DNA of 63,405 bases, counting the filler. It is 9 parts of 9 records of this genome, joined end to end, with 100 filler letters (N's around TTAATTAATTAA, not from the genome) between each part and the next. Parts side by side here need not be neighbours in the genome. Positions count along the whole stretch, not along the records: positions 7,433 to 17,223 come from SRR31147125_12555; 8 more parts are not named here. One strand, given 5' to 3'. The position numbers were made by a program, and so were the translations under genes. The notes under the pieces were generated by a model. The model did no database searches, had not been told where the DNA came from, and worked only from the letters and a program-made list of their open reading frames with translations. Positions 7,333 through 26,055 of the stretch are shown here, piece by piece. How positions within the stretch are numbered: the first letter of the stretch is position 1; every line of letters begins with the position of its first letter.

Positions 7333-7432
7333 NNNNNNNNNNNNNNNNNNNNNNNNNNNNNNNNNNNNNNNNNNNNTTAATTAATTAANNNNNNNNNNNN
7401 NNNNNNNNNNNNNNNNNNNNNNNNNNNNNNNN
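7333..7432. other. Artificial contig spacer
   Basis: 44 N + TTAATTAATTAA (stops in all six frames) + 44 N. Confidence 0.98.
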
Positions 7433-7443
7433 GGGGTATTTAA

Positions 7444-8058
7444 TCAATCGAGAATTACATCGAGCCCTGCAAGTAAAGAAACGGCCTCTGGAAGGGAAAA
7501 TCTAGTCTTTTTTATAAGGTTATTATTAGGGTCAATTGAGTAATTAGTTGCCAGTCGAAAATCAGATTGCGTTAAATTAGTTTTTAGAAACCGGCTACTT
7601 GTAAAATCCGTAGCGTTAAAGTTTCCGCTTGCCAAATTAGCTTCACCAAAATCTACATCCCTCGCAATGCATTCGACCATTATCATTTTTGTAAGGTTTA
7701 GCCCAAAAAAAGAGGATAAGTTTATCAAACAAGAGTAAAAGTTAACACTCAGGGGTGTTGCCGCCTCCGTCCAATTAACACCAACCAACTTACTATCCTT
7801 AAAGTTTACATCAATAAACGAACAATATTGAGGCTTAACCAGGCTAAGATCACATTTTGTGAACTCACAATCTTCGAATCGACATTTTTGGAATATCGAT
7901 CCGCTAAATTTACAATTTACAAATTTACAATTATAAAATTCAAGGTTTTTAAAATCTCCGTCTTTTGACTCTTTTTGTTCAAACGTTTGCCCTTCATGGG
8001 TCTTCTCAAACCCAGCCCACCGACTGTTCTCCTGTGAAAACAATGGAAGCTCTTCCAT
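7444..8058 (-). CDS. Pentapeptide repeat protein (MfpA/Qnr-like fold)
   Basis: Repeated [CA]xFxx/xDLxx pentapeptides; C-terminal YSIDPNNNLIKKTRFS motif. Confidence 0.88.
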   Translation of the reverse strand: MEELPLFSQENSRWAGFEKTHEGQTFEQKESKDGDFKNLEFYNCKFVNCKFSGSIFQKCRFEDCEFTKCDLSLVKPQYCSFIDVNFKDSKLVGVNWTEAATPLSVNFYSCLINLSSFFGLNLTKMIMVECIARDVDFGEANLASGNFNATDFTSSRFLKTNLTQSDFRLATNYSIDPNNNLIKKTRFSLPEAVSLLAGLDVILD

Positions 8059-8135
8059 ATCAAAACCTCATGAATAATACGTGCTAGAATTCCAACCCCG
8101 ACTGCGGCCAGACAGAACAAAAGTCTCTCATTTTT

Positions 8136-8693
8136 CTATTCTCGCCAATGTTCTGGTTGATTAAGCACCTCGGAACACTGGATTTTTCCTGTTACTCTTC
8201 CTATAACCCCATTACTTAACTCTTGCACCATCCAAGCACCCGCATGTTCCTCTGGAATGGGATATGGGGCTTCGTAACCAAGTGCCCCTGCCGGGATAAA
8301 GCCAGAGCGTGGATAATAATCCGGATGTCCGAGAACAAAGACTAACTCAACACCTGCTTTTTTTAATTGACTCAATCCCTCTTTGATAAGTTGGCCACCA
8401 ACACCCTTACTTTGAACATCCGGCAGAACTGCGAGAGGTGCAAGTATTTGGGCAGATACTGACTCAGAAGATTCTGTTACTGTCACCTTCGTATAAAGTA
8501 TATGACCAATAATCTTGTTATCTTCAACTGCTACAAGCGATAGTATTGGGATTGCTGTTTCATCATTCATCAATCCCTGTACAAGTTCCGCAATTTCAGG
8601 TCCTTTTTTTTCGCCAAAGGCCTTTATATGAACATTGCTTATTTCTGTTTTGTCCGATTCTGTTGATTTTCTAATTTCCACAATAATCTCCAT
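8136..8693 (-). CDS. GNAT N-acetyltransferase (YhbS-like)
   Basis: LAPLAVLPDVQSKGVGGQLI and VFVLGHPDYYPRSGF. Confidence 0.92.
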   Translation of the reverse strand: MEIIVEIRKSTESDKTEISNVHIKAFGEKKGPEIAELVQGLMNDETAIPILSLVAVEDNKIIGHILYTKVTVTESSESVSAQILAPLAVLPDVQSKGVGGQLIKEGLSQLKKAGVELVFVLGHPDYYPRSGFIPAGALGYEAPYPIPEEHAGAWMVQELSNGVIGRVTGKIQCSEVLNQPEHWRE

Positions 8694-8744
8694 TTTGTGC
8701 TGAAAAAAATTTGCCCAGCAAAAATTTTCATAAATTAATACGGG

Positions 8745-8841
8745 CTAGGAGTCTGTCGGACATAGGGGATCGTAACGAGAAAAGTGGAAACTGAGGCGGT
8801 GTTTTCACAATGGATTCATTCTAAGTCAGACAGGCTTCTAG
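8745..8841. mobile_element. 97-bp MITE with CTAG at both ends
   Basis: Left end CTAGGAGTCTGTCGGACATAG matches the reverse complement of the right end (CTAGAAGCCTGTCTGACTTAG) at 17/21 positions; no transposase ORF. Confidence 0.7.
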
Positions 8842-9653
8842 GTTTATAGTTCTCCCGCAACCGCGTCTCAACGAACCCGAACTTCCGTATATTCTTGTAT
8901 GAATGTTGCGGGTCCCCGCCAACAGCCTCGCCCGTTTCCGTAAAGATATGCGTACAACGAAGCTCTCTGGCTTTAGATATTCGTGCGGCAATAATCGCCG
9001 CCTGACTCCCCTTGCGGCGAAACTCCGGGCTGGTAGCCCCCCAATCTATCCAGGCCTTGTCCCCCACCACAAATAATGCTCCGGCTCCCGCAGGAATGTC
9101 GCCCTCATAACTGACAAACAAGTACCAGCGCGGGTCATCGGCAAGCCCGGCCAACAAAGGTATTGCAGCATCTGTCAGATCAAAGGCGTTGCAGACAATC
9201 CTGCCAAAATCTTCCGCTTTATCAGGGCAGATTTCTTCGATTCTTAAATTCGTGGATACCTCAATTGGCGGTGCCGCATCACGATGAAAGTTCATCCAGC
9301 CGCGAGCCTTTCTCAAGCCCGGCGTCCGATAATCGTTGGGGCCATTCATTGGGCATATCGTTCAAGTAAAGATGCAAGAAAAAGCTGCTGACACCTAATT
9401 TCTGATAAGCATCCACAACTTTTTTTATGGATCCCAACTCCATCGGCGCACCCGAACCGAGTCCCAGCACCCTGTTTAACAGAATACTTGTGTCATTTTC
9501 AGCAGCAATTACAACGGCGTCGGCAATTTCTAACAGATGCAACCCGAGACTCTTCCTTGTTTCCTCAGGACAGTTAGCATGCAGGCTGATTAATGCCTCA
9601 CGCTCTATCTCATCTGAAACACGCTCTATTTCCAACATTTCTGTTTCACTCAC
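8816..9653 (-). CDS. GNAT-family acetyltransferase, split by a 1-bp frameshift near 9309
   Basis: ATSPEFRRKGSQ acetyl-CoA motif and SYKNIRKFGF; removing one base at about 9307-9311 joins SDAGLEK to ARGWMNF (about 278 aa). Confidence 0.8.
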
Positions 9654-9915
9654 CTTTCACGCTGAAACAAGAATATAAATCTGGTGCCTTTTCCGCACAT
9701 ATCCACAAAATTATCCAGTTTGAAGTAGTCAGTCTTGAAGTTGATGTCCACCTTTCCCATGGTTTTGGCAAACAGCTCATCCCGAGCCTCTTTACTTGCG
9801 GTATTGCTCTGCCTGTTCGCGGTTACCCTGACCTCCATTCCATTTTTTCCACCATTAGCCTGGTTACACCCATAAGTACCAGTTCGCTCAGGGCTCCTCG
9901 TTGTTCCTTTGCCAT
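9650..9915 (-). CDS. Small hypothetical protein, probably frameshifted
   Basis: ATG at 9915 reads MAKEQRGALSELVLMGVTRLMVEK; one extra base in the T6 run at 9843-9848 continues into NGMEVRVTANRQ...FLFQRER (about 88 aa); its stop overlaps the next start (GTGA). Confidence 0.5.
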
Positions 9916-9933
9916 GTTTGCTTGCCAAATCCT

Positions 9934-10623
9934 TTAAGCCGATTCCTCACTCTTCTCACTCGGCCGGTACCGCTCAATAACCTTTTTGAATTTTTCCAGA
10001 TCACCCTCCGCACCGGAGAACATAGCTGTAAAATCGTCATTCCCAAAATATGCCGCTCGTTGCTGAGTTGTAATCTTTGATTTTTTACATTGCACCCAGA
10101 TTGAAGCCCATGCCTGAAAAATACAGAGAGCAACCAGTATCCAAAAGGAGTTCTCCGGCGCTAAAGCCTGGCTCGAAGTCCCGATATGCTCGCGAAGAAT
10201 CGTCACAAAAATCGTTATGCCCAGGAAACAGGCCATCGGAATTGTGTAATAGTAGGTCATCCACCGCGACATCCCCTTGCCTTCTGCCGAACACATCATC
10301 ATGGTTCTAATTGGCGGCATTTGAGGGTTGTCATGTTCCCACTTCAGACCCACCAGGAATACCGAGTTCAACAATCGCTGATAAACCAGCTGATCATTAA
10401 TCCATAACAGCAAAAGACCGATGGTGGCCATTAAACTCACGAGTCCAACCAGAACCGCACTTGGAACCAACCAAGTTGAATCTTCGCTGATTTTTATCAG
10501 AACCGCGATGGCCGCGAAAGCCGCAAGAATCCAAGTCGAAGCCCGGTTGCGGATTCCAGCCTGGATCGTGTTGAAGTGACGCTCCGACTCAACAAATTTC
10601 CAATATTCCTCTTTTGAATCCAT
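9934..10623 (-). CDS. Hypothetical membrane protein (about 4 TM segments)
   Basis: 229-aa ORF with four hydrophobic stretches; GGAG SD upstream. Confidence 0.75.
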   Translation of the reverse strand: MDSKEEYWKFVESERHFNTIQAGIRNRASTWILAAFAAIAVLIKISEDSTWLVPSAVLVGLVSLMATIGLLLLWINDQLVYQRLLNSVFLVGLKWEHDNPQMPPIRTMMMCSAEGKGMSRWMTYYYTIPMACFLGITIFVTILREHIGTSSQALAPENSFWILVALCIFQAWASIWVQCKKSKITTQQRAAYFGNDDFTAMFSGAEGDLEKFKKVIERYRPSEKSEESA

Positions 10624-10715
10624 GGTCTAAATCTCCATTCGGGAAATTCTGTTGAAAGTATTAAAGAGCTCTTTACCTTCGATCACAAGAATGGGCATGT
10701 TTGCCATTTACCTCA

Positions 10716-11843
10716 TCACCAACTCTCTTTTTTCGGCTGGAGAGGAATCAGCTCATATTCACGACTCCCAAGTCCTATCTTTTCAGCATGCTCCAGAGTG
10801 ATATTTCCATCGATAAGCGGATGCACCCCCCTGAATTTATCGCCACCCGGTTCATGCCCTTTCTTTAAAGCGGTTCCCGGCAGACCCTGGGCCTGGTTGA
10901 CCAGATCGAGGCAAGCCTGGTCGACGGCCACCGGGTCGGTTGAGGCGAGGATGCCGATATCCGGAACGATCGGGGCGTCGGAATGGCCGTAGCAATCGCA
11001 GTCCGGTGAAACCTGCATGACAAAATTGACGTGCAACGATTTTTCCTTTTTACCTTCCAGCGCTCCGACAGCATACTCGGCCATTTTTTTCATGACCATC
11101 GGCGCACTCTGGTTCCACTGAATCTGGATCGCCCTCTCAGGACAGGCCGTAATGCAGCGACTGCAACCGACGCACTTCTCGTCAATAATCCGGGCCTTAC
11201 CCTCGGCAAACTCGATGGCGTCATGAGCGCAGGCTTTCAGGCAAGCCCCACAACCGGTGCAGAGTTCCACCGCAACCTTCGGCGCAACGCTGGAGTGCTG
11301 CTCCATTTTCCCTTCCCGGCTGCAGCAGCCCATGCCGAGGTTCTTTACCGCGCCACCAAAGCCGGTGAGTTCATGGCCCTTGAAGTGGGAAACGATCACC
11401 ATGGCATCCGCCTCCAGGATTTCCAGTCCGATATCGACGGTTTTAAGAATTTCCCCGTTGACTTCGACCCGCCTGGCGGAATGCCCGCGCAATCCGTCGC
11501 ACATGACCAGGGGAGCGCCGACCACGGCATAAGCCAGGCCGTTTTCAATACCGCACCTCAAAGCCGAGACGGCTTCTTTCCGTTCGCCGGGGTAGAGCGT
11601 GGACGAATCGGTGACAAAGGGCCTCGCATCCAGTTCCTTGAGGCGCTCGACAACGCTGCGAAGGAACGTCGGCCGCACAAAAGCGTGCCCCCCTTTTTCA
11701 CCGAAGTGCGTTTTAACTGCGACCAAATCCCCTTGGAGGATAATATCCGCCAATCCCGCGTCGTTCAGAAGCCTGACCAGTTTAGTGTGTAGATTTTCAT
11801 TGTGTCCTGAACGCATGTCGGAAAAATAAACCTTTGAAGACAT
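10716..11843 (-). CDS. DUF362-domain protein with a 2x[4Fe-4S] ferredoxin insert
   Basis: VAVKTHFGE, SHFKGH, GGAVKNLGMG, CTGCGAC...C, CVGCSRC...CP, CDC and DPVAVDQA. Confidence 0.92.
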   Translation of the reverse strand: MSSKVYFSDMRSGHNENLHTKLVRLLNDAGLADIILQGDLVAVKTHFGEKGGHAFVRPTFLRSVVERLKELDARPFVTDSSTLYPGERKEAVSALRCGIENGLAYAVVGAPLVMCDGLRGHSARRVEVNGEILKTVDIGLEILEADAMVIVSHFKGHELTGFGGAVKNLGMGCCSREGKMEQHSSVAPKVAVELCTGCGACLKACAHDAIEFAEGKARIIDEKCVGCSRCITACPERAIQIQWNQSAPMVMKKMAEYAVGALEGKKEKSLHVNFVMQVSPDCDCYGHSDAPIVPDIGILASTDPVAVDQACLDLVNQAQGLPGTALKKGHEPGGDKFRGVHPLIDGNITLEHAEKIGLGSREYELIPLQPKKESW

Positions 11844-12037
11844 CTTTTTCTCCTCTCTTTTTCAAATAACTCTACAACAAAGCGCCGGAAAATAATGGCC
11901 CGAAAACTTTAAAATCTCCGGCGCCTGTCAAATTTTGCCACTCTGTTTAAGTTTATTAATGTTTTTATGCCGACACATGGGAATTTCAGTGAAAGATGAT
12001 ATCATAAAGAATATGTTTTTTGAAAAGGAGGGATAAA

Positions 12038-13078
12038 TTGGATCAGAAACAGCGATTTCAACTTCTGCAGAGAGCCCGCCTGAAAAGCATCCTGAAAAAA
12101 AGCACCATTTTTCTAATTGTCGGTGTTCTCCTTTATTATGGTATCGCACTGGTTTACGCCACCAAAACCATTTACAAAGTCCGCTTCAATTACGCCGTAG
12201 TCCTGGAGGACCTCGCCGGCAAACGACGGGTCGTGGACGATGTCGGCTGGCATATCCGACCTCCTTTCTTTTCACGCCTCGAACTGGAAGTTCCGCTGAT
12301 GAACCAGGAGCTTTATCTCGGCGGCGACCCCCAGGAGCAGAGGATCATTTCCAGGGGAAATGTCGCTCTTTGGGCCAGCGCCATGCTGACCTACCGCATC
12401 ACCAACCTGAAAAGATGGGGCATTGAAAACCGTGACCCCAAACAATTGTTCCAGAATGATTTCGACGGCATGGTCAAGGACGTGATGCAGGGAAAATCGA
12501 TCAATGAACTGATTTCCCAGCGCCAGGCCCTCAAGGAAGAGATCTACCAGATTCTCAAAAAAGACCCCATCAATGTCGGCGGACCGACCATGGAAGATAA
12601 ATACGGTGTCGAGATCATTTCGTTTGTTCTGCGCAATACCCGCTTCGGCGATAAACTAGCCGAGGCAAGTGAGGAAAAGAAGCGCCGCGAAATGATTGCC
12701 GAAGCTGAGAACTACGCGGCTGATCAGGAGGCCAGCAGGATCCGCAAACTGTATGCGGCTTATCGTGATTCCATCCGCGATTTCAGAAACGCTCTGGGCT
12801 TTAATCAACAGAATGATCAAGTCCTCCTCGATTTTTTGAATCAGCAGAAGTGGGCAACCGCTTACGAAAAAAACCAGCACGGGCAGAACACCTTTGTCCT
12901 GAACAATACCGCGGGAAGTCCTCCCATCGTTCTTCCCGCGCCAACTGCTTCGACTGGGATCGAACCGCCTGAGTCAGGAAACAATGGAGCCACTGGAAAC
13001 CAGGTCGTACCGGGTCCAACCCTGACGGAAGCCCTGAAAAAATATCCCTGGACCCAACAGCAAAACGCAAACAAGTAA
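12038..13078 (+). CDS. SPFH/band-7 (HflK/HflC-like) membrane protein
   Basis: AAGGAGG SD before TTG at 12038; single N-terminal TM; GWHIRPPF, YRI, INELISQR and YGVEIISFVL match SPFH; C-terminal coiled coil and Pro-rich tail. Confidence 0.8.
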   Translation: MDQKQRFQLLQRARLKSILKKSTIFLIVGVLLYYGIALVYATKTIYKVRFNYAVVLEDLAGKRRVVDDVGWHIRPPFFSRLELEVPLMNQELYLGGDPQEQRIISRGNVALWASAMLTYRITNLKRWGIENRDPKQLFQNDFDGMVKDVMQGKSINELISQRQALKEEIYQILKKDPINVGGPTMEDKYGVEIISFVLRNTRFGDKLAEASEEKKRREMIAEAENYAADQEASRIRKLYAAYRDSIRDFRNALGFNQQNDQVLLDFLNQQKWATAYEKNQHGQNTFVLNNTAGSPPIVLPAPTASTGIEPPESGNNGATGNQVVPGPTLTEALKKYPWTQQQNANK

Positions 13079-13240
13079 TCGGACGAAAATAAGGAGTTGA
13101 CACCAGATTTCGGACCCGGCAAGGAAAATCAATCCGGTCCGTTAAACCTTATTCGAGTTTTTCCACAACCTGGTAGCGGGGACCCAGCCGGTTGCACTTC
13201 CGGCACCCTCGATAAATCGGAAAGGAGATTCAAGGATAAC

Positions 13241-16200
13241 ATGTCAACCGTGCGCAAAACCAAAACCCCCATCAACGTCCGGCTTTCCGAGAAACGTTTA
13301 CGTCAGATCCAGAATCTGGTTGAAAGCTGGAATTATGAAACCCGCAGTTTCGTTCTTCAGCGCCTGAGACAATACCATCCCAAGCCTTCTCTTTTCAGAT
13401 TCATCCGCATTCTCCTTCGCCGCATGCTCCAACCATCAGAACGCCGCTTCCATATGCTTCGCAATCCCGAATCTCTGAGCGACTGGCATCGGCGCATGGA
13501 GATTTCAGGCTCCCCCAGCGCTTCGGCGGCATGGAACAAAATATTGGAACGGGAGCTCGACCGCCACGACTACTACTATCTGACCTATCTTCTTGAACGG
13601 GAAACCGCCGATATTTACGTCCCCCAGTACCTACGGGACTTTTTTGAAAAAATCTATCATGCTCATGTCCTGAAAGAATACTCTGAGGACAGCTCCATTC
13701 CACGCTCGCTGGTTTTGATTATCGGATCTTCAGGCAGCGGGAAAAGCGCCACACTCACCCAGGCCTTGGAAGAAACCATTTTTTCCATGGAAGTGCGCCC
13801 CACCATCGATCTGAAAGCCAAAAAGGAAGAGGTTCTTAAGGAGCAACCAATCTGGAAAGGGCTGGAAGAGGTCGACCCGGAACTGGCAGCTGAAATTGAA
13901 AGACGCCGCAAGGTTGAACAGCTGAAATTTCTCTCGCGACTTCCGGTCATAAAATATTTGTACCGGCAGCGGGTGGCCCAGGCCCTCTCGTCACTGGAAG
14001 AAAAAGGGATTCTGGTCGATTATGCCCAGATCACACCCAACGACTTTCAGACCGCCTGGGCCGGCGAACCGGGCAACCGCCTGCGCAAAGCCATGGGTGA
14101 AGCGGATCAACCCTGCATTCGTCATCTCGAAGAAGCCCACTCGGCATTCGGCCGCCTTGATCAGACCAGTTCCGTCAAAAGTCAGCAGGCAACCCTGGTG
14201 GACACCGCCAATATCCTGCTCGATGAAATTTCCCAGGGCAAGCGGGATTGCCTTCTTATCGCCACAACGGACCAGCCTGAGCAGTTCGAGCCATCTATCT
14301 ACAGGCGTTTTGTGGAGCGTGGACAGATCATCGACATCAATGACCTCTGGCAGCACCCTGAAAACCTCAAGGAAGTGGTTCGTCTCGAGCTGCGCCGCAG
14401 CAACTTTTTCCTCGCCACTTCAGATGAAAAGGAGGAAATCAATCAGGAAGTCCTGCTCGATGAGACGATCGAAAAAGTTCTGCCGATCTTCCACGAGCGC
14501 ACCCTGCGGATGACCCCTGCTTACCTGCGCCGGCTTATCGGTTCGATTATCGCCCTGAAAAAAGATTTTCATCCCAGCTACCTGGATGATCAGTTCCTGG
14601 TCCGGGATGCCTTCAAGGCGGTTGCCAAAAACGTCTACGGCTCACTGTACAAAAAAGTCATCGGCCGCATGGAGCGCGATGTGCACTGGCAGGACTACAT
14701 CGGGTCCATCAAGGATGAGTTTTCAGAGATGGCCAACAATTCTCTTTTTTACAGCGTCCAGGATGAAAAGGGCGTTGTCCTCTCCGGCCCCCCGGTTCGG
14801 GAAAAACCTACATGGTAAAAGCCTGGCTGGGGGAAAACACCGAGGTCCAGGATATTCTGGTCTACATGAATGATCTGAGCGATCCCGCGAATCCCTATGA
14901 GGGATTGGTGGAAAACCTGGAGCGCGTATATGACATTGCCAAGATGATCTCACCCAGCCTGGTCTTTTTCGATGAAGGGGACGCCATTGCCCCGCGCCGT
15001 TCCCAACAGGGGGAACGCCCTATGATAAAGTGACCAACAAGTTTCTCTCCATCATCGACGGCGAAGCGCCTCTCCACCATGTGTTTACCGTTTTGACGAC
15101 CAACCGCCTAGACATCCTCGATCCGGCCTTGATCCGCTCCAAGCGACTGAAGGTGTTGAACGTCTCCGGTCAGATGCGGGAAGAGGATTCGGTAAGAATT
15201 CTGCGTAAAGAGATAAAGGATATTCCGCTTGAGGAAGGCCTTAATCATGAGGAAATGGTCCGCATCGCCCGCGGCCTGTGCGACACTCCGGCTGATTTTA
15301 CCGCTTACGCCGAAAAAGTCCGCAGCCTGCGGCAAACCGAAGTCGAGGTCCTGGGCCAGCTTGCCAAAGCCATTGCCGGTACTGAAGAGGAGCGCATGCG
15401 TTTTGTCCGCTTCAACCACAAGACCCTTCTCAGTCTGCTGGAAGGAGTCCCCCACCCTACAAACCTGATCGCAAAAGCGCGCCGCAGCGAAGAGGACATG
15501 CTGAAATGCCTGGATGAAGTCGCCAAGCAACTGCAGGAACTCAGTCAAAAGGGCGGCTATCCGGTCACTCGAAGACATCTGATTAACGCCAGACATCAAC
15601 TGGGTCGCAGTCCGACCCGAAAAGGCAAACAGCAGCTTGACCGCTTTCTCGAAACAGAGCTTTCGGTGGAACCTCAGGTCGGTTTTGTCGTCGGCGTCGG
15701 CGCCAATGATGCTTCCGGAGTTTTGCTCCCTATTGCTTCGTCCCTTGTCTACCGTGTTTTTTCGGAAAAAATTGTCGTCACGGGCGCGGTGTCGACGACA
15801 GCACCCGGCGCAGCTGAAATGGATATGGCCGTACAGATGACTCGCCAGAGCGCCCAGGAGGCACTGACCCTGACGGAAAATTACCTGCAGTCCCTCTGTC
15901 CCACACTGAACATCTCACGGATTCTGGGTGAATATCTTGAAGGCTACTCTCTGCACCACCAACTTCTCAGCGCTTCCTATACAGTCGGAGGGCCATCCGC
16001 CGGGTTTGCCCTGGCCATCAACACCCTTTCGGTGCTTCTAAATCTTCCGGTTCTAAACGACTTCGGCATCACCGGAGCGCCCTGGATCAAGGGCGCACAA
16101 AAAGATGAGGTCGGCGCTTCGGTCATCATAGGCGGTCATCGCCGCAAAACCGAAAAAGTGCTTCAATACCTCCCTCGCATGTATATGCCGACCCAGAATT

Positions 16201-16649
16201 ATGAGGATATGGAACCCGAAATTCTTAAAGCTTACCGGATCGAAGGCAAAGAGATTCGCGGCGTACGCAGTTTTTCAAACCTGGTTCAGGAAGTCTTCTT
16301 TTTCGGCGATGAACATTTTCAGCGTCTCGATAAATTTCTCAATGAAAGACTCGAATACGACCTCAAAGAGCACCCGGAAAACGGCGACAATCCGGAAGAA
16401 GCCCGGCTGGCCGATGAAGAGAGCAGGTTGCGGCGCGTTGCTGAGGAGGAAATCCGCCGCCGCATGATGATTATCAGCGACTATGTGACCGGAGACAATA
16501 AATCCAGGGACTATTCAAGCCTGGAAACAGCTTTCAGCAATTTGGCCAAAGGTGAAGCGAAATCCGGCATCCCATCCCGCAGAACTGACACCAGCTCGGA
16601 AAAAAGAACCCTAAAGAAAGAGTCTTTGCCGGCAAAAAATGTCCTTTAG
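13241..16649 (+). CDS. Tandem classical AAA ATPase fused to a Lon (S16) protease domain; two 1-bp frameshifts
   Basis: D1 GSSGSGKS / HLEEAH / IATTD..IYRRF; D2 GPPGSGKT (after +C at 14788-14793) / VFFDEGDAIAPRR / TTNRLDILDPALIR (after +G at 15009-15013); Lon domain GGPSAG, GITG, IGGHRRK; about 1136 aa reconstructed. Confidence 0.85.
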
Positions 16650-16739
16650 AGTAGTTGCGAAAACAGCTTCTATCCTTTAAACTGTAGTCATTTCATTTGC
16701 TTTTAAAAACAAACCGTCTTTAAATTGAGGGAGGCAAGA

Positions 16740-16898
16740 ATGGACAAATATCGTTGTGTCGTGTGTAATTATATTTATGATCCGGCCGAAGGTGATCCGG
16801 ATGCGGGCATTGCCCCTGGAACCGCTTTTGAAGATATTCCGGAAGATTGGGTTTGTCCTCTCTGCGGCGCGGATAAAAGCAATTTTGAAAAAGCCTGA
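16740..16898 (+). CDS. Rubredoxin (52 aa, missing from the ORF track)
   Basis: [59 protein letters not shown]. Confidence 0.97.
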
Positions 16899-16911
16899 TT
16901 GAGGTCAAATT

Positions 16912-17100
16912 ATGGACCGGCAACCCTTTGTGGATCAGGAAGCTTGTATAAGCTGTCATTTTTGTGTGGACACGGTTCCGGAAGTTTTTCGCATGAACGA
17001 AGACAATTCCGCGGAGGTTTATAATCCTTCCGGAGCTCCCAAAATAAAAATCATTGAAGCTATTGAGGGATGCCCGGTTTCGTGCATCCATTGGGATTAG
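16912..17100 (+). CDS. Single-cluster ferredoxin
   Basis: CISCHFC...CPVSCI; GAGG SD. Confidence 0.93.
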   Translation: MDRQPFVDQEACISCHFCVDTVPEVFRMNEDNSAEVYNPSGAPKIKIIEAIEGCPVSCIHWD

Positions 17101-17223
17101 TCCATTTACCCGGATTATTCATGAAAACTTTTACTGCAACCGTCAATTGCACACCATCTCAGACCGTGCTCACTCCTTGCTCTTCGACGTACAGAAAGTA
17201 CGCCTGCATCGCGCGTCACTGTG

Positions 17224-17323
17224 NNNNNNNNNNNNNNNNNNNNNNNNNNNNNNNNNNNNNNNNNNNNTTAATTAATTAANNNNNNNNNNNNNNNNNNNNN
17301 NNNNNNNNNNNNNNNNNNNNNNN
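17224..17323. other. Artificial contig spacer
   Basis: Same N/TTAATTAATTAA/N linker. Confidence 0.98.
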
Positions 17324-25955: not shown

Positions 25956-26055
25956 NNNNNNNNNNNNNNNNNNNNNNNNNNNNNNNNNNNNNNNNNNNNT
26001 TAATTAATTAANNNNNNNNNNNNNNNNNNNNNNNNNNNNNNNNNNNNNNNNNNNN
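25956..26055. other. Artificial contig spacer
   Basis: Same linker. Confidence 0.98.

Follow-up and report, generated by a model that had tools for sequence, protein, structure and literature searches.

To our knowledge, the well-studied Lon proteases all use one HCLR-type motor, and the well-studied Cdc48-type double rings all either have no peptidase to feed or pass substrates to one that is separate. The archaeal Cdc48 cooperates with the 20S proteasome, a distinct complex. The HCLR clade, which holds the motor of Lon, is defined by a beta-hairpin before sensor 1, and in the Clp proteases the peptidase is a separate ClpP tetradecamer and the D2 of the motor belongs to the HCLR clade (PMC7973254). 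The current classification (PMC9569914) comprises LonA, LonB, LonC and LonBA, all with one ATPase domain. The table of a 2008 survey (PMC2605481) gives as Lon_C architectures the domain alone, LON-AAA-Lon_C, Sigma54-AAA-Lon_C, Sigma54-Lon_C, Mg_chelatase-Lon_C and PDZ-Lon_C, and none in that table has two AAA domains with Lon_C. FtsH is enclosed and held in check by SPFH rings, and a similar action on m-AAA proteases is thought to be exerted by prohibitins (PMC9020784). Here we analyzed a locus in a stretch of DNA of 63,405 nucleotides (the window, along which all positions are counted) that encodes two AAA modules followed by a Lon-type peptidase on one chain (AAA-AAA-Lon).

We found that the AAA-AAA-Lon protein is a Lon peptidase with a Cdc48-type double motor, genetically tied to an SPFH membrane protein and so far undescribed among AAA+ proteases. 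The locus is probably an intact two-gene cassette, made up of the SPFH gene and the gene of a soluble ATP-dependent protease of about 1136 aa and of new build. The function of the protease and its partnership with the SPFH protein are what we infer. An original prediction, made from the sequence letters, had proposed this fusion for positions 13241-16649 and had described it as a self-contained unfoldase-protease. The features of the locus, all on the + strand, are as follows.

12020..13078, +: SPFH/Band-7 membrane protein, 352 aa (Pfam Band_7, E 2.3e-19)
13241..16649, +: AAA-AAA-Lon gene as given in the window, lacking a single base in both of its broken homopolymer runs
13241..13690, +: N-domain of about 150 aa (residues 1-150), a beta-hairpin followed by about eight helices (DSSP of the model)
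13691..14437, +: D1, a divergent classical AAA module, residues 151-400 (Pfam AAA, Cdc48 D1 match in the PDB, column counts, DSSP)
14753..15605, +: D2, a classical AAA module with lid and helical linker (PF00004, E 5e-29 on the homologue P0001; matches to VAT and p97 D2 in the PDB)
14788..14793, +: C6 run in the D2 Walker A codons (G-P-P-G), one C short (extra C in contigs X1, X3 and X4; P0001 has GPPGSGKT)
15009..15013, +: G5 run, one G short (extra G in X1, extra base in X4; P0001 has QQGGTPYDK)
15648..16301, +: Lon-type (S16) peptidase (P) domain, residues 805-1022 (VIA-align, column counts, PDB sequence matches)
16302..16649, +: C-terminal extension with two long helices, a disordered tail and the stop (DSSP, predicted confidence, alignments A1 and A3)

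Reading frame and domains of the AAA-AAA-Lon protein

As given, the gene lies on a contig of 9.8 kb (7433-17223, 49% G+C) and consists of three open reading frames (ORFs) in three frames of the + strand, at 13097/13241-14818, 14812-15033 and 15030-16649. Restoring one base in each run yields a single frame of 3411 nt, that is 1136 aa plus the stop. The intact homologue P0001 (1137 aa) is 92-97% identical to the window pieces, piece by piece, and its sequences at the two junctions, GPPGSGKTYMVKAW and QQGGTPYDKVTNKFL, are identical in form to the two-base repair. As a frameshift test, we aligned Logan contigs of four public runs to window positions 14500-15300. Contig X1 (10,979 nt, depth 14.6) has one more C after 14787 and one more G after 15008 than the window, and no other differing letter in this region. 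X1 may represent the sample of origin. It would then be the same reads assembled a second time and not an independent organism, which suits a test for consensus errors. The extra C at the first run was also present in X3, and X4, a relative of about 95%, has the extra C plus an additional base behind 15011. Compared with the 92%-identical orthologue of locus L001, the three pieces gave ratios of nonsynonymous to synonymous substitution (dN/dS) of 0.06, 0.00 and 0.09, indicating purifying selection, so the pieces 3' of each break are as constrained as the piece before. Since X1 carries both missing bases, P0001 reads as the repair and all pieces are under purifying selection, we conclude that both frameshifts are assembly errors and that the gene is intact, with about 1136 aa. 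The original prediction had proposed the same repair. The C added at 14788-14793 does restore the Walker A motif GPPGSGKT and the G added at 15009-15013 gives the reading found in P0001. The predicted single ORF of about 1136 aa stands, and the motifs that had been quoted from it (VFFDEGDAIAPRR, TTNRLDILDPALIR, GGPSAG, ITG and IGGHRRK) were all found in the ORF translations.

The domain order of the protein is an N-domain of no known family, a classical AAA D1, a classical AAA D2, a Lon Ser-Lys peptidase and a helical tail. We numbered this anatomy on P0001; the window protein is one residue shorter after about residue 155. Structural statements refer to a full-length AlphaFold2 model built from a 63-row alignment, with a mean pLDDT (predicted local distance difference test) of 81.6. 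Residue frequencies are column counts from 63 sequences that are not independent, 48 being at least 60% identical to the first. An 11-row alignment of diverse members (A1) showed the same invariant residues. Pfam identified two AAA domains (PF00004) and one Lon_C domain in P0001, the profile that had been expected, with Lon_C just over its gathering score (21.5 bits against 21.1); two archaeal members scored 25.4 and 31.7 bits.

Both sequence and fold comparisons pointed to Cdc48-type motors. When the whole protein was searched against PDB sequences, the best 60 of 272 matches were all VAT, p97/Cdc48, NSF, NVL, AFG2/SPATA5 or Rix7, and none was Lon. Foldseek returned at least 500 matches, the best of them Cdc48, p97, Rix7 and NVL over 600-750 columns, and VIA-align matched NVL with a Z of 20.9 over residues 1-824. 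A Foldseek search against viral structures gave generic AAA and giant-virus Lon matches only. The NCBIfam model for CDC48 (TIGR01243) scored 106.1 bits against a cut-off of 802.65, with residues 265-739 collinear with model positions 243-711. The models for PAN (77 bits), FtsH (66 bits) and lon (32 bits, largely via the P domain) were likewise far under their cut-offs, and the protein therefore belongs to no NCBIfam family. The hairpin before sensor 1 is absent from the model, in which 5-7 residues without a strand join alpha3 to beta4 in both D1 (333-337) and D2 (609-615). A quick maximum-likelihood tree of 54 AAA modules recovered a D1 clade (support 100) and a D2 clade (support 98), with LonA apart on two long branches. 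This tree rules out a close tie to Lon; its backbone is a polytomy, and by itself the tree places neither D1 nor D2 in the classical clade. The expectation that the AAA modules would not look like the Lon motor is thus borne out by the Cdc48-type matches, the absence of the hairpin and the separation of the D2 clade from LonA.

D2 spans residues 505-700, with its lid and linker reaching to about 800. Its Walker A motif spans the C run, its Walker B motif (VFFDEGD) lies at 14962-14982, and a short helix (544-547) follows strand beta2. The Walker A Lys, the Walker B Glu, the sensor-1 Asn (in T-T-N) and both arginines of R-x-x-R are present in 63/63 sequences and the Walker B Asp in 59/63. D2 therefore has the sensor-1 Asn, the two arginines of the second region of homology (SRH) and the short helix before pore loop 1 that characterize classical AAA modules, and its best PDB matches are the D2 modules of VAT and p97, in agreement with the classical hallmarks (a quoted motif and the SRH) that had been assigned to it. 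The pore-loop position of D2 is mostly aliphatic (L43, I9, F4, V4, Y3) and is aromatic in 7/63.

D1 is very divergent. Its closest PDB sequence match is the D1 of Cdc48 (E 1.2e-6), and its Walker A motif (13724-13747) has the Lys in 63/63. A charged, helical insert of about 85 residues (about 183-258, pLDDT 51-76) follows the Walker A helix. Past the insert come strand beta2, a short helix (267-270) and a pore loop of the form W-[A/Y]-G-E, the pore-loop position of which is aromatic in 55/63 (W49, Y3, F3, L8). The Walker B motif reads h-h-h-h-E-E, with E58, D2, L2 and V1 at the first acidic position and Glu in 63/63 at the second. The SRH-like stretch ends in Y-R-R-F, with each Arg present in 61/63, and most members have Asp at the sensor-1 position. 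The lid and linker of D1 consist of helices 397-503. We looked for a LonB-type membrane anchor in the D1 insert and found no hydrophobic stretch by sequence and DSSP, no dedicated transmembrane predictor having been run.

Neither a LON N-domain (PF02190) nor a Cdc48 N-domain (CDC48_N or CDC48_2) was among the Pfam matches of P0001 or P0012 at E<=0.01. The N-domain itself had no Pfam match at this threshold, and an Atlas search with it yielded nothing usable. With E values up to 10, only a weak match to HicB_lk (E 0.094) was seen. The first 45 residues (13241-13375) form a strand-helix-helix in the model, and the weak match is to the ribbon-helix-helix end of HicB-like antitoxins, a hint, to be taken as a lead only, that the N-domain may start with a ribbon-helix-helix-like fold.

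The Ser codon of the P domain lies at 15996-15998 (G-G-P-S-A-G) and the Lys codon at 16146-16148 (I-G-G-x-x-x-K). Ser, Lys and the Pro before Ser are each present in 63/63, across bacteria and archaea and down to 33% identity. Ser and Lys are spaced by 50 in 63/63, and 49 residues separate them in all 11 diverse A1 members. According to PMC9569914, exactly 42 residues lie between the catalytic Ser and Lys in LonA and LonB, and a Pro before Ser is a LonA signature, LonB and LonC having Asp there. When aligned to the P domain of A. fulgidus LonB (AfLonB), the Ser and Lys fall on its catalytic residues and the seven extra residues sit between TG and GG. The codon positions and this alignment uphold the predicted spacing of 50 against 43 in Lon, by a 7-residue insert after TG.

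Searched alone against PDB sequences, the P domain matched Lon P domains, BsLonBA (E 1.1e-4) ahead of AfLonB, the remainder being five chance-level rows (E 0.23-0.67). VIA-align, a search independent of Foldseek, aligned the full model to Lon P domains with Z 18.4-18.8 and a root-mean-square deviation (rmsd) of 2.4-3.1 over 179-192 residues: MjLonB (Z 18.8, rmsd 3.0, 183 of 187 residues), MtaLonA (Z 18.8, rmsd 2.4, 183 residues), E. coli Lon (Z 18.6, rmsd 2.7, 179 of 182), BsLonBA (Z 18.5) and AfLonB (Z 18.4). Whole Lon chains aligned over D2 and P together, with Z 19.1 for TonLonB (411 aligned) and 18.9 for MtaLonA (410 aligned). The Lon-like domains of RadA, BrxL and ComM ranked lower, with Z 15-16 and 10-16% identity, compared with 20-28% for true Lon P domains. 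The pLDDT of the P domain is mostly 85-94 in the full-length model. Folded alone from the 11-row alignment, it gave a low-confidence model (mean pLDDT 60.6), whose top 12 matches were Lon domains (Z 8.5-6.4). In the full-length model, the P domain has a long beta-hairpin, helix 920-935 starts with the Ser and helix 968-978 contains the Lys, in keeping with the description of the Lon P domain in PMC9569914. Behind the P domain, helices 1025-1043 and 1053-1085 carry a conserved A-E-x-E-I-x-x-R motif, the Glu and Arg of which are invariant in A1 and A3.

Homologues and the SPFH partner gene

We searched for homologues with the last ORF piece as query, among longer proteins only, and obtained 657 proteins at E<=0.001 among 7999 candidates. 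All 120 of the matches listed have 1005-1146 aa and a query coverage of 82-100%. Named carriers are Desulfuromonas sp. DDH964 and D. versatilis (both complete genomes, with the gene on contigs of 3.9 and 4.7 Mb), Geoalkalibacter, Geothermobacter, Malonomonas and Geopsychrobacter. The gene was present in 10/401 sampled genomes of the phylum of host genome G001, with frames of 1112-1196 aa and no internal stop in 10/10. The homologues are thus single genes that are not split at the junctions, in 120/120 of those listed and with an open frame above 1100 aa in 10/10 genomes, as the fusion reading required. A search of 1.84 billion cluster representatives with P0001 yielded, besides fragments, eight representatives of full length that are 33-52% identical to it. 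Some representatives are named Candidatus Woesearchaeota and Nanoarchaeota, and the bacterial members fall in Desulfuromonadales. With an archaeal P domain as query, at least 15 further archaeal-type clusters of 1068-1115 aa were recovered; seven of the 120 matches listed in this search were shorter than 1000 aa, four of them on contigs below 6.2 kb and cut by the contig end. The other three, P0313 (656 aa), P0314 (691 aa) and P0305 (755 aa), start at an internal Met before D2, on contigs of 252 kb, 686 kb and 10.6 kb, respectively; they may be genes split by homopolymer errors as in the window, or genuine short forms. The ESM Atlas holds three bacterial clusters of the AAA-AAA-Lon family (184, 93 and 61 members), with AAA in 100% and Lon_C in 84-95%. 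A scan of genome contigs found three close loci, all bacterial. A metagenome scan found three true members among 44 loci, also all bacterial, the Walker A pattern having swamped the rest.

The source annotations of these homologues read 'AAA family ATPase', 'SpoVK/Ycf46/Vps4 family' or 'transitional endoplasmic reticulum ATPase'. Annotation pipelines thus miss the peptidase and name the ATPase alone. All five host genomes searched also encode LonA and FtsH, with 2-6 LonA matches and one or more FtsH matches above the family cut-offs. This indicates that the AAA-AAA-Lon protease is an addition to the host complement, not a replacement.

Several other proteins came to light in these searches. 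The closest host genomes (L078 on contig 1 of G001 and L079 on contig 6 of G002) encode ordinary Cdc48-like tandem AAA proteins (743 and 729 aa) that have no peptidase. From the cluster-representative search, about ten proteins of 900-1200 aa were checked for a shorter AAA-Lon form, and none had Lon_C. Two archaeal clusters in the ESM Atlas (118 and 110 members, about 910-919 aa, Thermoproteota and Bathyarchaeota; feature score 0.95) have AAA in 100%, Lon_C in 97-98% and AAA_5 in 93%, and may represent a second, shorter AAA-Lon family. P0183 (595 aa) has a caspase N-half (Peptidase_C14, E 5.5e-18) and a C-half that is 31% identical to the Lon-like domain and tail of the family (query 802-1105), and looks like a caspase-Lon fusion. 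P0168 (1184 aa) has three classical AAA modules followed by Peptidase_M41 (E 8e-48). It is a multi-ring FtsH-like protease, in which additional AAA rings are likewise fused to a peptidase.

The gene directly upstream encodes the SPFH protein. This protein begins with a basic N-tail (about 25 residues) and a single hydrophobic helix, which are followed by the SPFH domain, a coiled-coil stretch that is conserved and a Pro-rich tail. An SPFH orthologue (56-92% identical) was found directly upstream and on the same strand in 13/13 loci with upstream DNA. These are the window, three loci from the genome-contig scan, seven from the phylum sample and two from the metagenome scan; L024 has no upstream DNA and was excluded. 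The SPFH protein itself shows high conservation, and one Arg of its short basic N-tail is invariant. By mechanical ORF calls, the two genes overlap by 4 nt or are separated by 1 nt in L003, L015, L016 and L020, and gaps elsewhere reach about 330 nt. The spacer in the window is 162 nt. No terminator-like site was found in it on the + strand, in a promoter and terminator scan whose counts were at chance level overall. A complex prediction for protease residues 1-400 with the whole SPFH protein, with the alignments unused, scored 0.00, which speaks neither for nor against binding.

Other neighbours are a DUF362 Fe-S protein upstream on the minus strand (10716-11843), also present at 5/10 other loci then examined, and, downstream, a rubredoxin-like ORF (16741-16898, with C-x-x-C pairs and no Pfam match at E<=0.01) and a 4Fe-4S ferredoxin (16912-17100). 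The DUF362, rubredoxin and ferredoxin neighbours are common only to close relatives. The window as a whole joins nine contigs through spacers of N44, 12 nt and N44 (7333-7432, 17224-17323, 25956-26055 and five more sites). Their G+C ranges from 0.33 to 0.53, so that they look like different organisms, with mostly bacterial genes. The contig at 17324-25955 carries, on the minus strand, short frames of a dynein heavy chain (DHC_N2, E 3.8e-9), one with a GPAGTGKT P-loop. The frames are broken as exons would be, and the contig is a eukaryotic one among bacterial ones.

Proposed mechanism and rival explanations

From its conserved residues and predicted structure, we consider it very likely that the AAA-AAA-Lon protein is an active ATP-dependent protease. 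It would form a hexamer with the D1 ring stacked on the D2 ring, like Cdc48 and NVL. The aromatic pore loop of D1 (W-[A/Y]-G) would grip substrates, which would then be pulled through D2. D2 has all the residues for hydrolysis (the Lys of Walker A, the Asp-Glu of Walker B, the sensor-1 Asn and two Arg) but an aliphatic loop. In p97, the aromatic pore loop is in D2, the reverse of this pattern. A chamber of six Lon peptidase domains below D2 would receive the substrates, in a D2-to-P arrangement like that of Lon itself, and the Ser-Lys dyad would cut them. More weakly, a membrane ring or cage of the SPFH protein may recruit or restrain the protease, by analogy with HflK/C-FtsH and prohibitin-m-AAA. 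This would suggest a role in membrane-associated protein quality control or regulated turnover, beside the ordinary LonA and FtsH. Whether the protease works physically with the SPFH protein is, in our judgement, evenly balanced.

Several observations weigh against this picture. All activity is deduced from conserved residues and a predicted model, and the 63 sequences counted are redundant. The aromatic pore-loop residue of D2 is lost in 56/63 members. D1 is degenerate in some, with a Walker B pair of E-E, or of L/V-E in 3/63, and Lon_C in P0001 only reaches the Pfam threshold. As to the partnership, all 13 SPFH-paired loci are bacterial, and in the clade of the window itself the two genes lie 148-330 nt apart and do not overlap. 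No transmembrane segment is visible in the protease sequence. In the SPFH protein, the heavily basic N-tail points to an N-in topology, with the SPFH domain outside the cytoplasm and away from the protease, which would leave only about 20 cytoplasmic SPFH residues as a docking site. The SPFH domain is outside the cytoplasm in HflK/C and has the opposite topology in QmcA. With an N-in topology, contact would have to be made via the conserved short N-tail, or else the SPFH protein would have the opposite, QmcA-like topology.

The lack of a visible transmembrane segment in the protease, the SPFH topology suggested by the basic N-tail and the 162-nt spacer of the window also favour a protease that is free in the cytosol, with the SPFH protein as its substrate or as the target of its regulator, or with the pairing reflecting co-regulation only. 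SPFH-NfeD operons exist, and an archaeal stomatin is cut by its operon partner protease. However, the adjacency holds in 13/13 loci, down to 47% protease identity and with overlaps or 1-nt gaps in five of them, as is typical of subunits of one machine, and the SPFH N-tail is conserved. We therefore regard a free cytosolic enzyme as unlikely, though as an alternative to be taken seriously. Loss of function in this organism, with only the relatives functional, would account for the three frames of the window as given. Both breaks lie in homopolymer runs, however, X1 is identical save for the two missing bases at a depth of 14.6, X3 and X4 agree at the first run, and the sequence past each break is under strong purifying selection (dN/dS 0.00 and 0.09). 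A real pseudogene with two frameshifts is thus extremely improbable.

The chance that the cassette is a conflict or defence system on mobile DNA also seems slight. Such a system would explain the patchy spread over bacteria and DPANN archaea, with 10/401 sampled genomes of one phylum plus Woesearchaeota and Nanoarchaeota, and it would find precedents in the defence proteins BrxL (Lon-like) and IetA (an AAA protein). PADLOC gave weak IetA/TRIP13 matches to D2 (E 3e-10), but these are generic AAA matches and the SPFH protein has none. The neighbours are ordinary metabolic genes (DUF362 Fe-S protein, rubredoxin and ferredoxin), and no integrase, transposase or tRNA was seen at the locus. It is slighter still for a Lon-like domain with a purely structural or oligomerisation role, like that in RadA/Sms and ComM, which would leave the protein only an unfoldase or segregase. 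Lon-like domains without protease activity do exist, RadA and ComM are among the fold matches (Z 15-16), and the Lon_C score is at threshold. Against this, 63/63 members, over the whole range of hosts and identities, have the Ser of G-G-P-S-A-G together with the Lys of I-G-G-x-x-x-K, and the true Lon domains match better (Z 18.4-18.8, 20-28% identity) than RadA and ComM (10-16%).

We thus favour the reading as an active protease encoded beside an SPFH protein. The original claim of a Cdc48-type unfoldase-protease distinct from LonA, LonB and LonC holds in its domains, spacing and clade; the word 'self-contained' is probably an overstatement, given the SPFH gene. That prediction overlooked the constant upstream SPFH gene. 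It also overlooked that the frameshifts are assembly errors rather than features of the gene, that D1 is very divergent and has a large insert, and that the canonical aromatic pore loop is in D1, not D2. More speculatively, and with some doubt, the protein could represent an additional class of energy-dependent proteases, next to Lon, FtsH, Clp, HslUV and the proteasome. It would be an SPFH-ring-docked counterpart of FtsH-HflK/C of independent origin, the two genes of which pass together between Desulfuromonadales of sediments and DPANN archaea. Docking on the SPFH ring would then occur via the N-domain, the D1 insert or the C-terminal helices.

Comparison with known systems

Full-text literature searches gave no account of an AAA-AAA-Lon protein or of a Lon-type protease paired with SPFH, consistent with the prediction that the architecture is not an already characterised family. 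The Cdc48-Lon fusion would show that another class of motor can power a Lon peptidase chamber, and it offers a single-chain model for a double-ring classical AAA unfoldase feeding a protease. The strict SPFH pairing would extend the SPFH-AAA-protease partnership beyond the FtsH type and could help to explain SPFH cages. The idea is directly testable, since cultured hosts can be named (Desulfuromonas versatilis, Desulfuromonas sp. DDH964, Malonomonas rubra and Geothermobacter).

Like the Lon proteases (S16: LonA, LonB, LonC and LonBA), the protein carries an ATPase and a C-terminal Ser-Lys peptidase of Lon fold on one chain. It shares the Pro before the catalytic Ser with LonA, and its D2-to-P arrangement superposes on that of whole Lon. 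Unlike Lon, which has one HCLR module, it has two AAA modules, both of the classical clade. The Ser-Lys spacing is 50 and not the 43 of LonA and LonB, owing to the seven residues between TG and GG. The protein also differs from Lon in having no LON N-domain and no membrane anchor in an AAA module, in the helical tail of about 110 residues after P and in its SPFH partner gene, and all NCBIfam Lon models score far below their cut-offs.

With Cdc48/p97/VAT and the type II proteins NVL and Rix7, it shares the tandem classical D1-D2, the best sequence and fold matches and the two arginines of the D2 SRH. It differs from them in having no CDC48_N double-psi-barrel, in a D1 with a large insert and an E-E Walker B, and in the aromatic loop being in D1. 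Its family score is 106 bits against a cut-off of 803, and its peptidase is fused, whereas theirs is recruited. The genetic pairing of a classical AAA protease with an SPFH membrane protein recalls FtsH-HflK/HflC and m-AAA-prohibitin. In contrast to FtsH, the protein has a Lon Ser-Lys rather than an M41 zinc domain, two AAA rings rather than one and no transmembrane helices that could be seen. It is paired with a single SPFH gene rather than with an HflK/HflC pair, and its hosts have a normal FtsH as well. Finally, as in ClpAP and ClpCP, a double-ring AAA+ unfoldase would feed a serine peptidase chamber; unlike in Clp, both rings are classical and the peptidase is part of the same chain.

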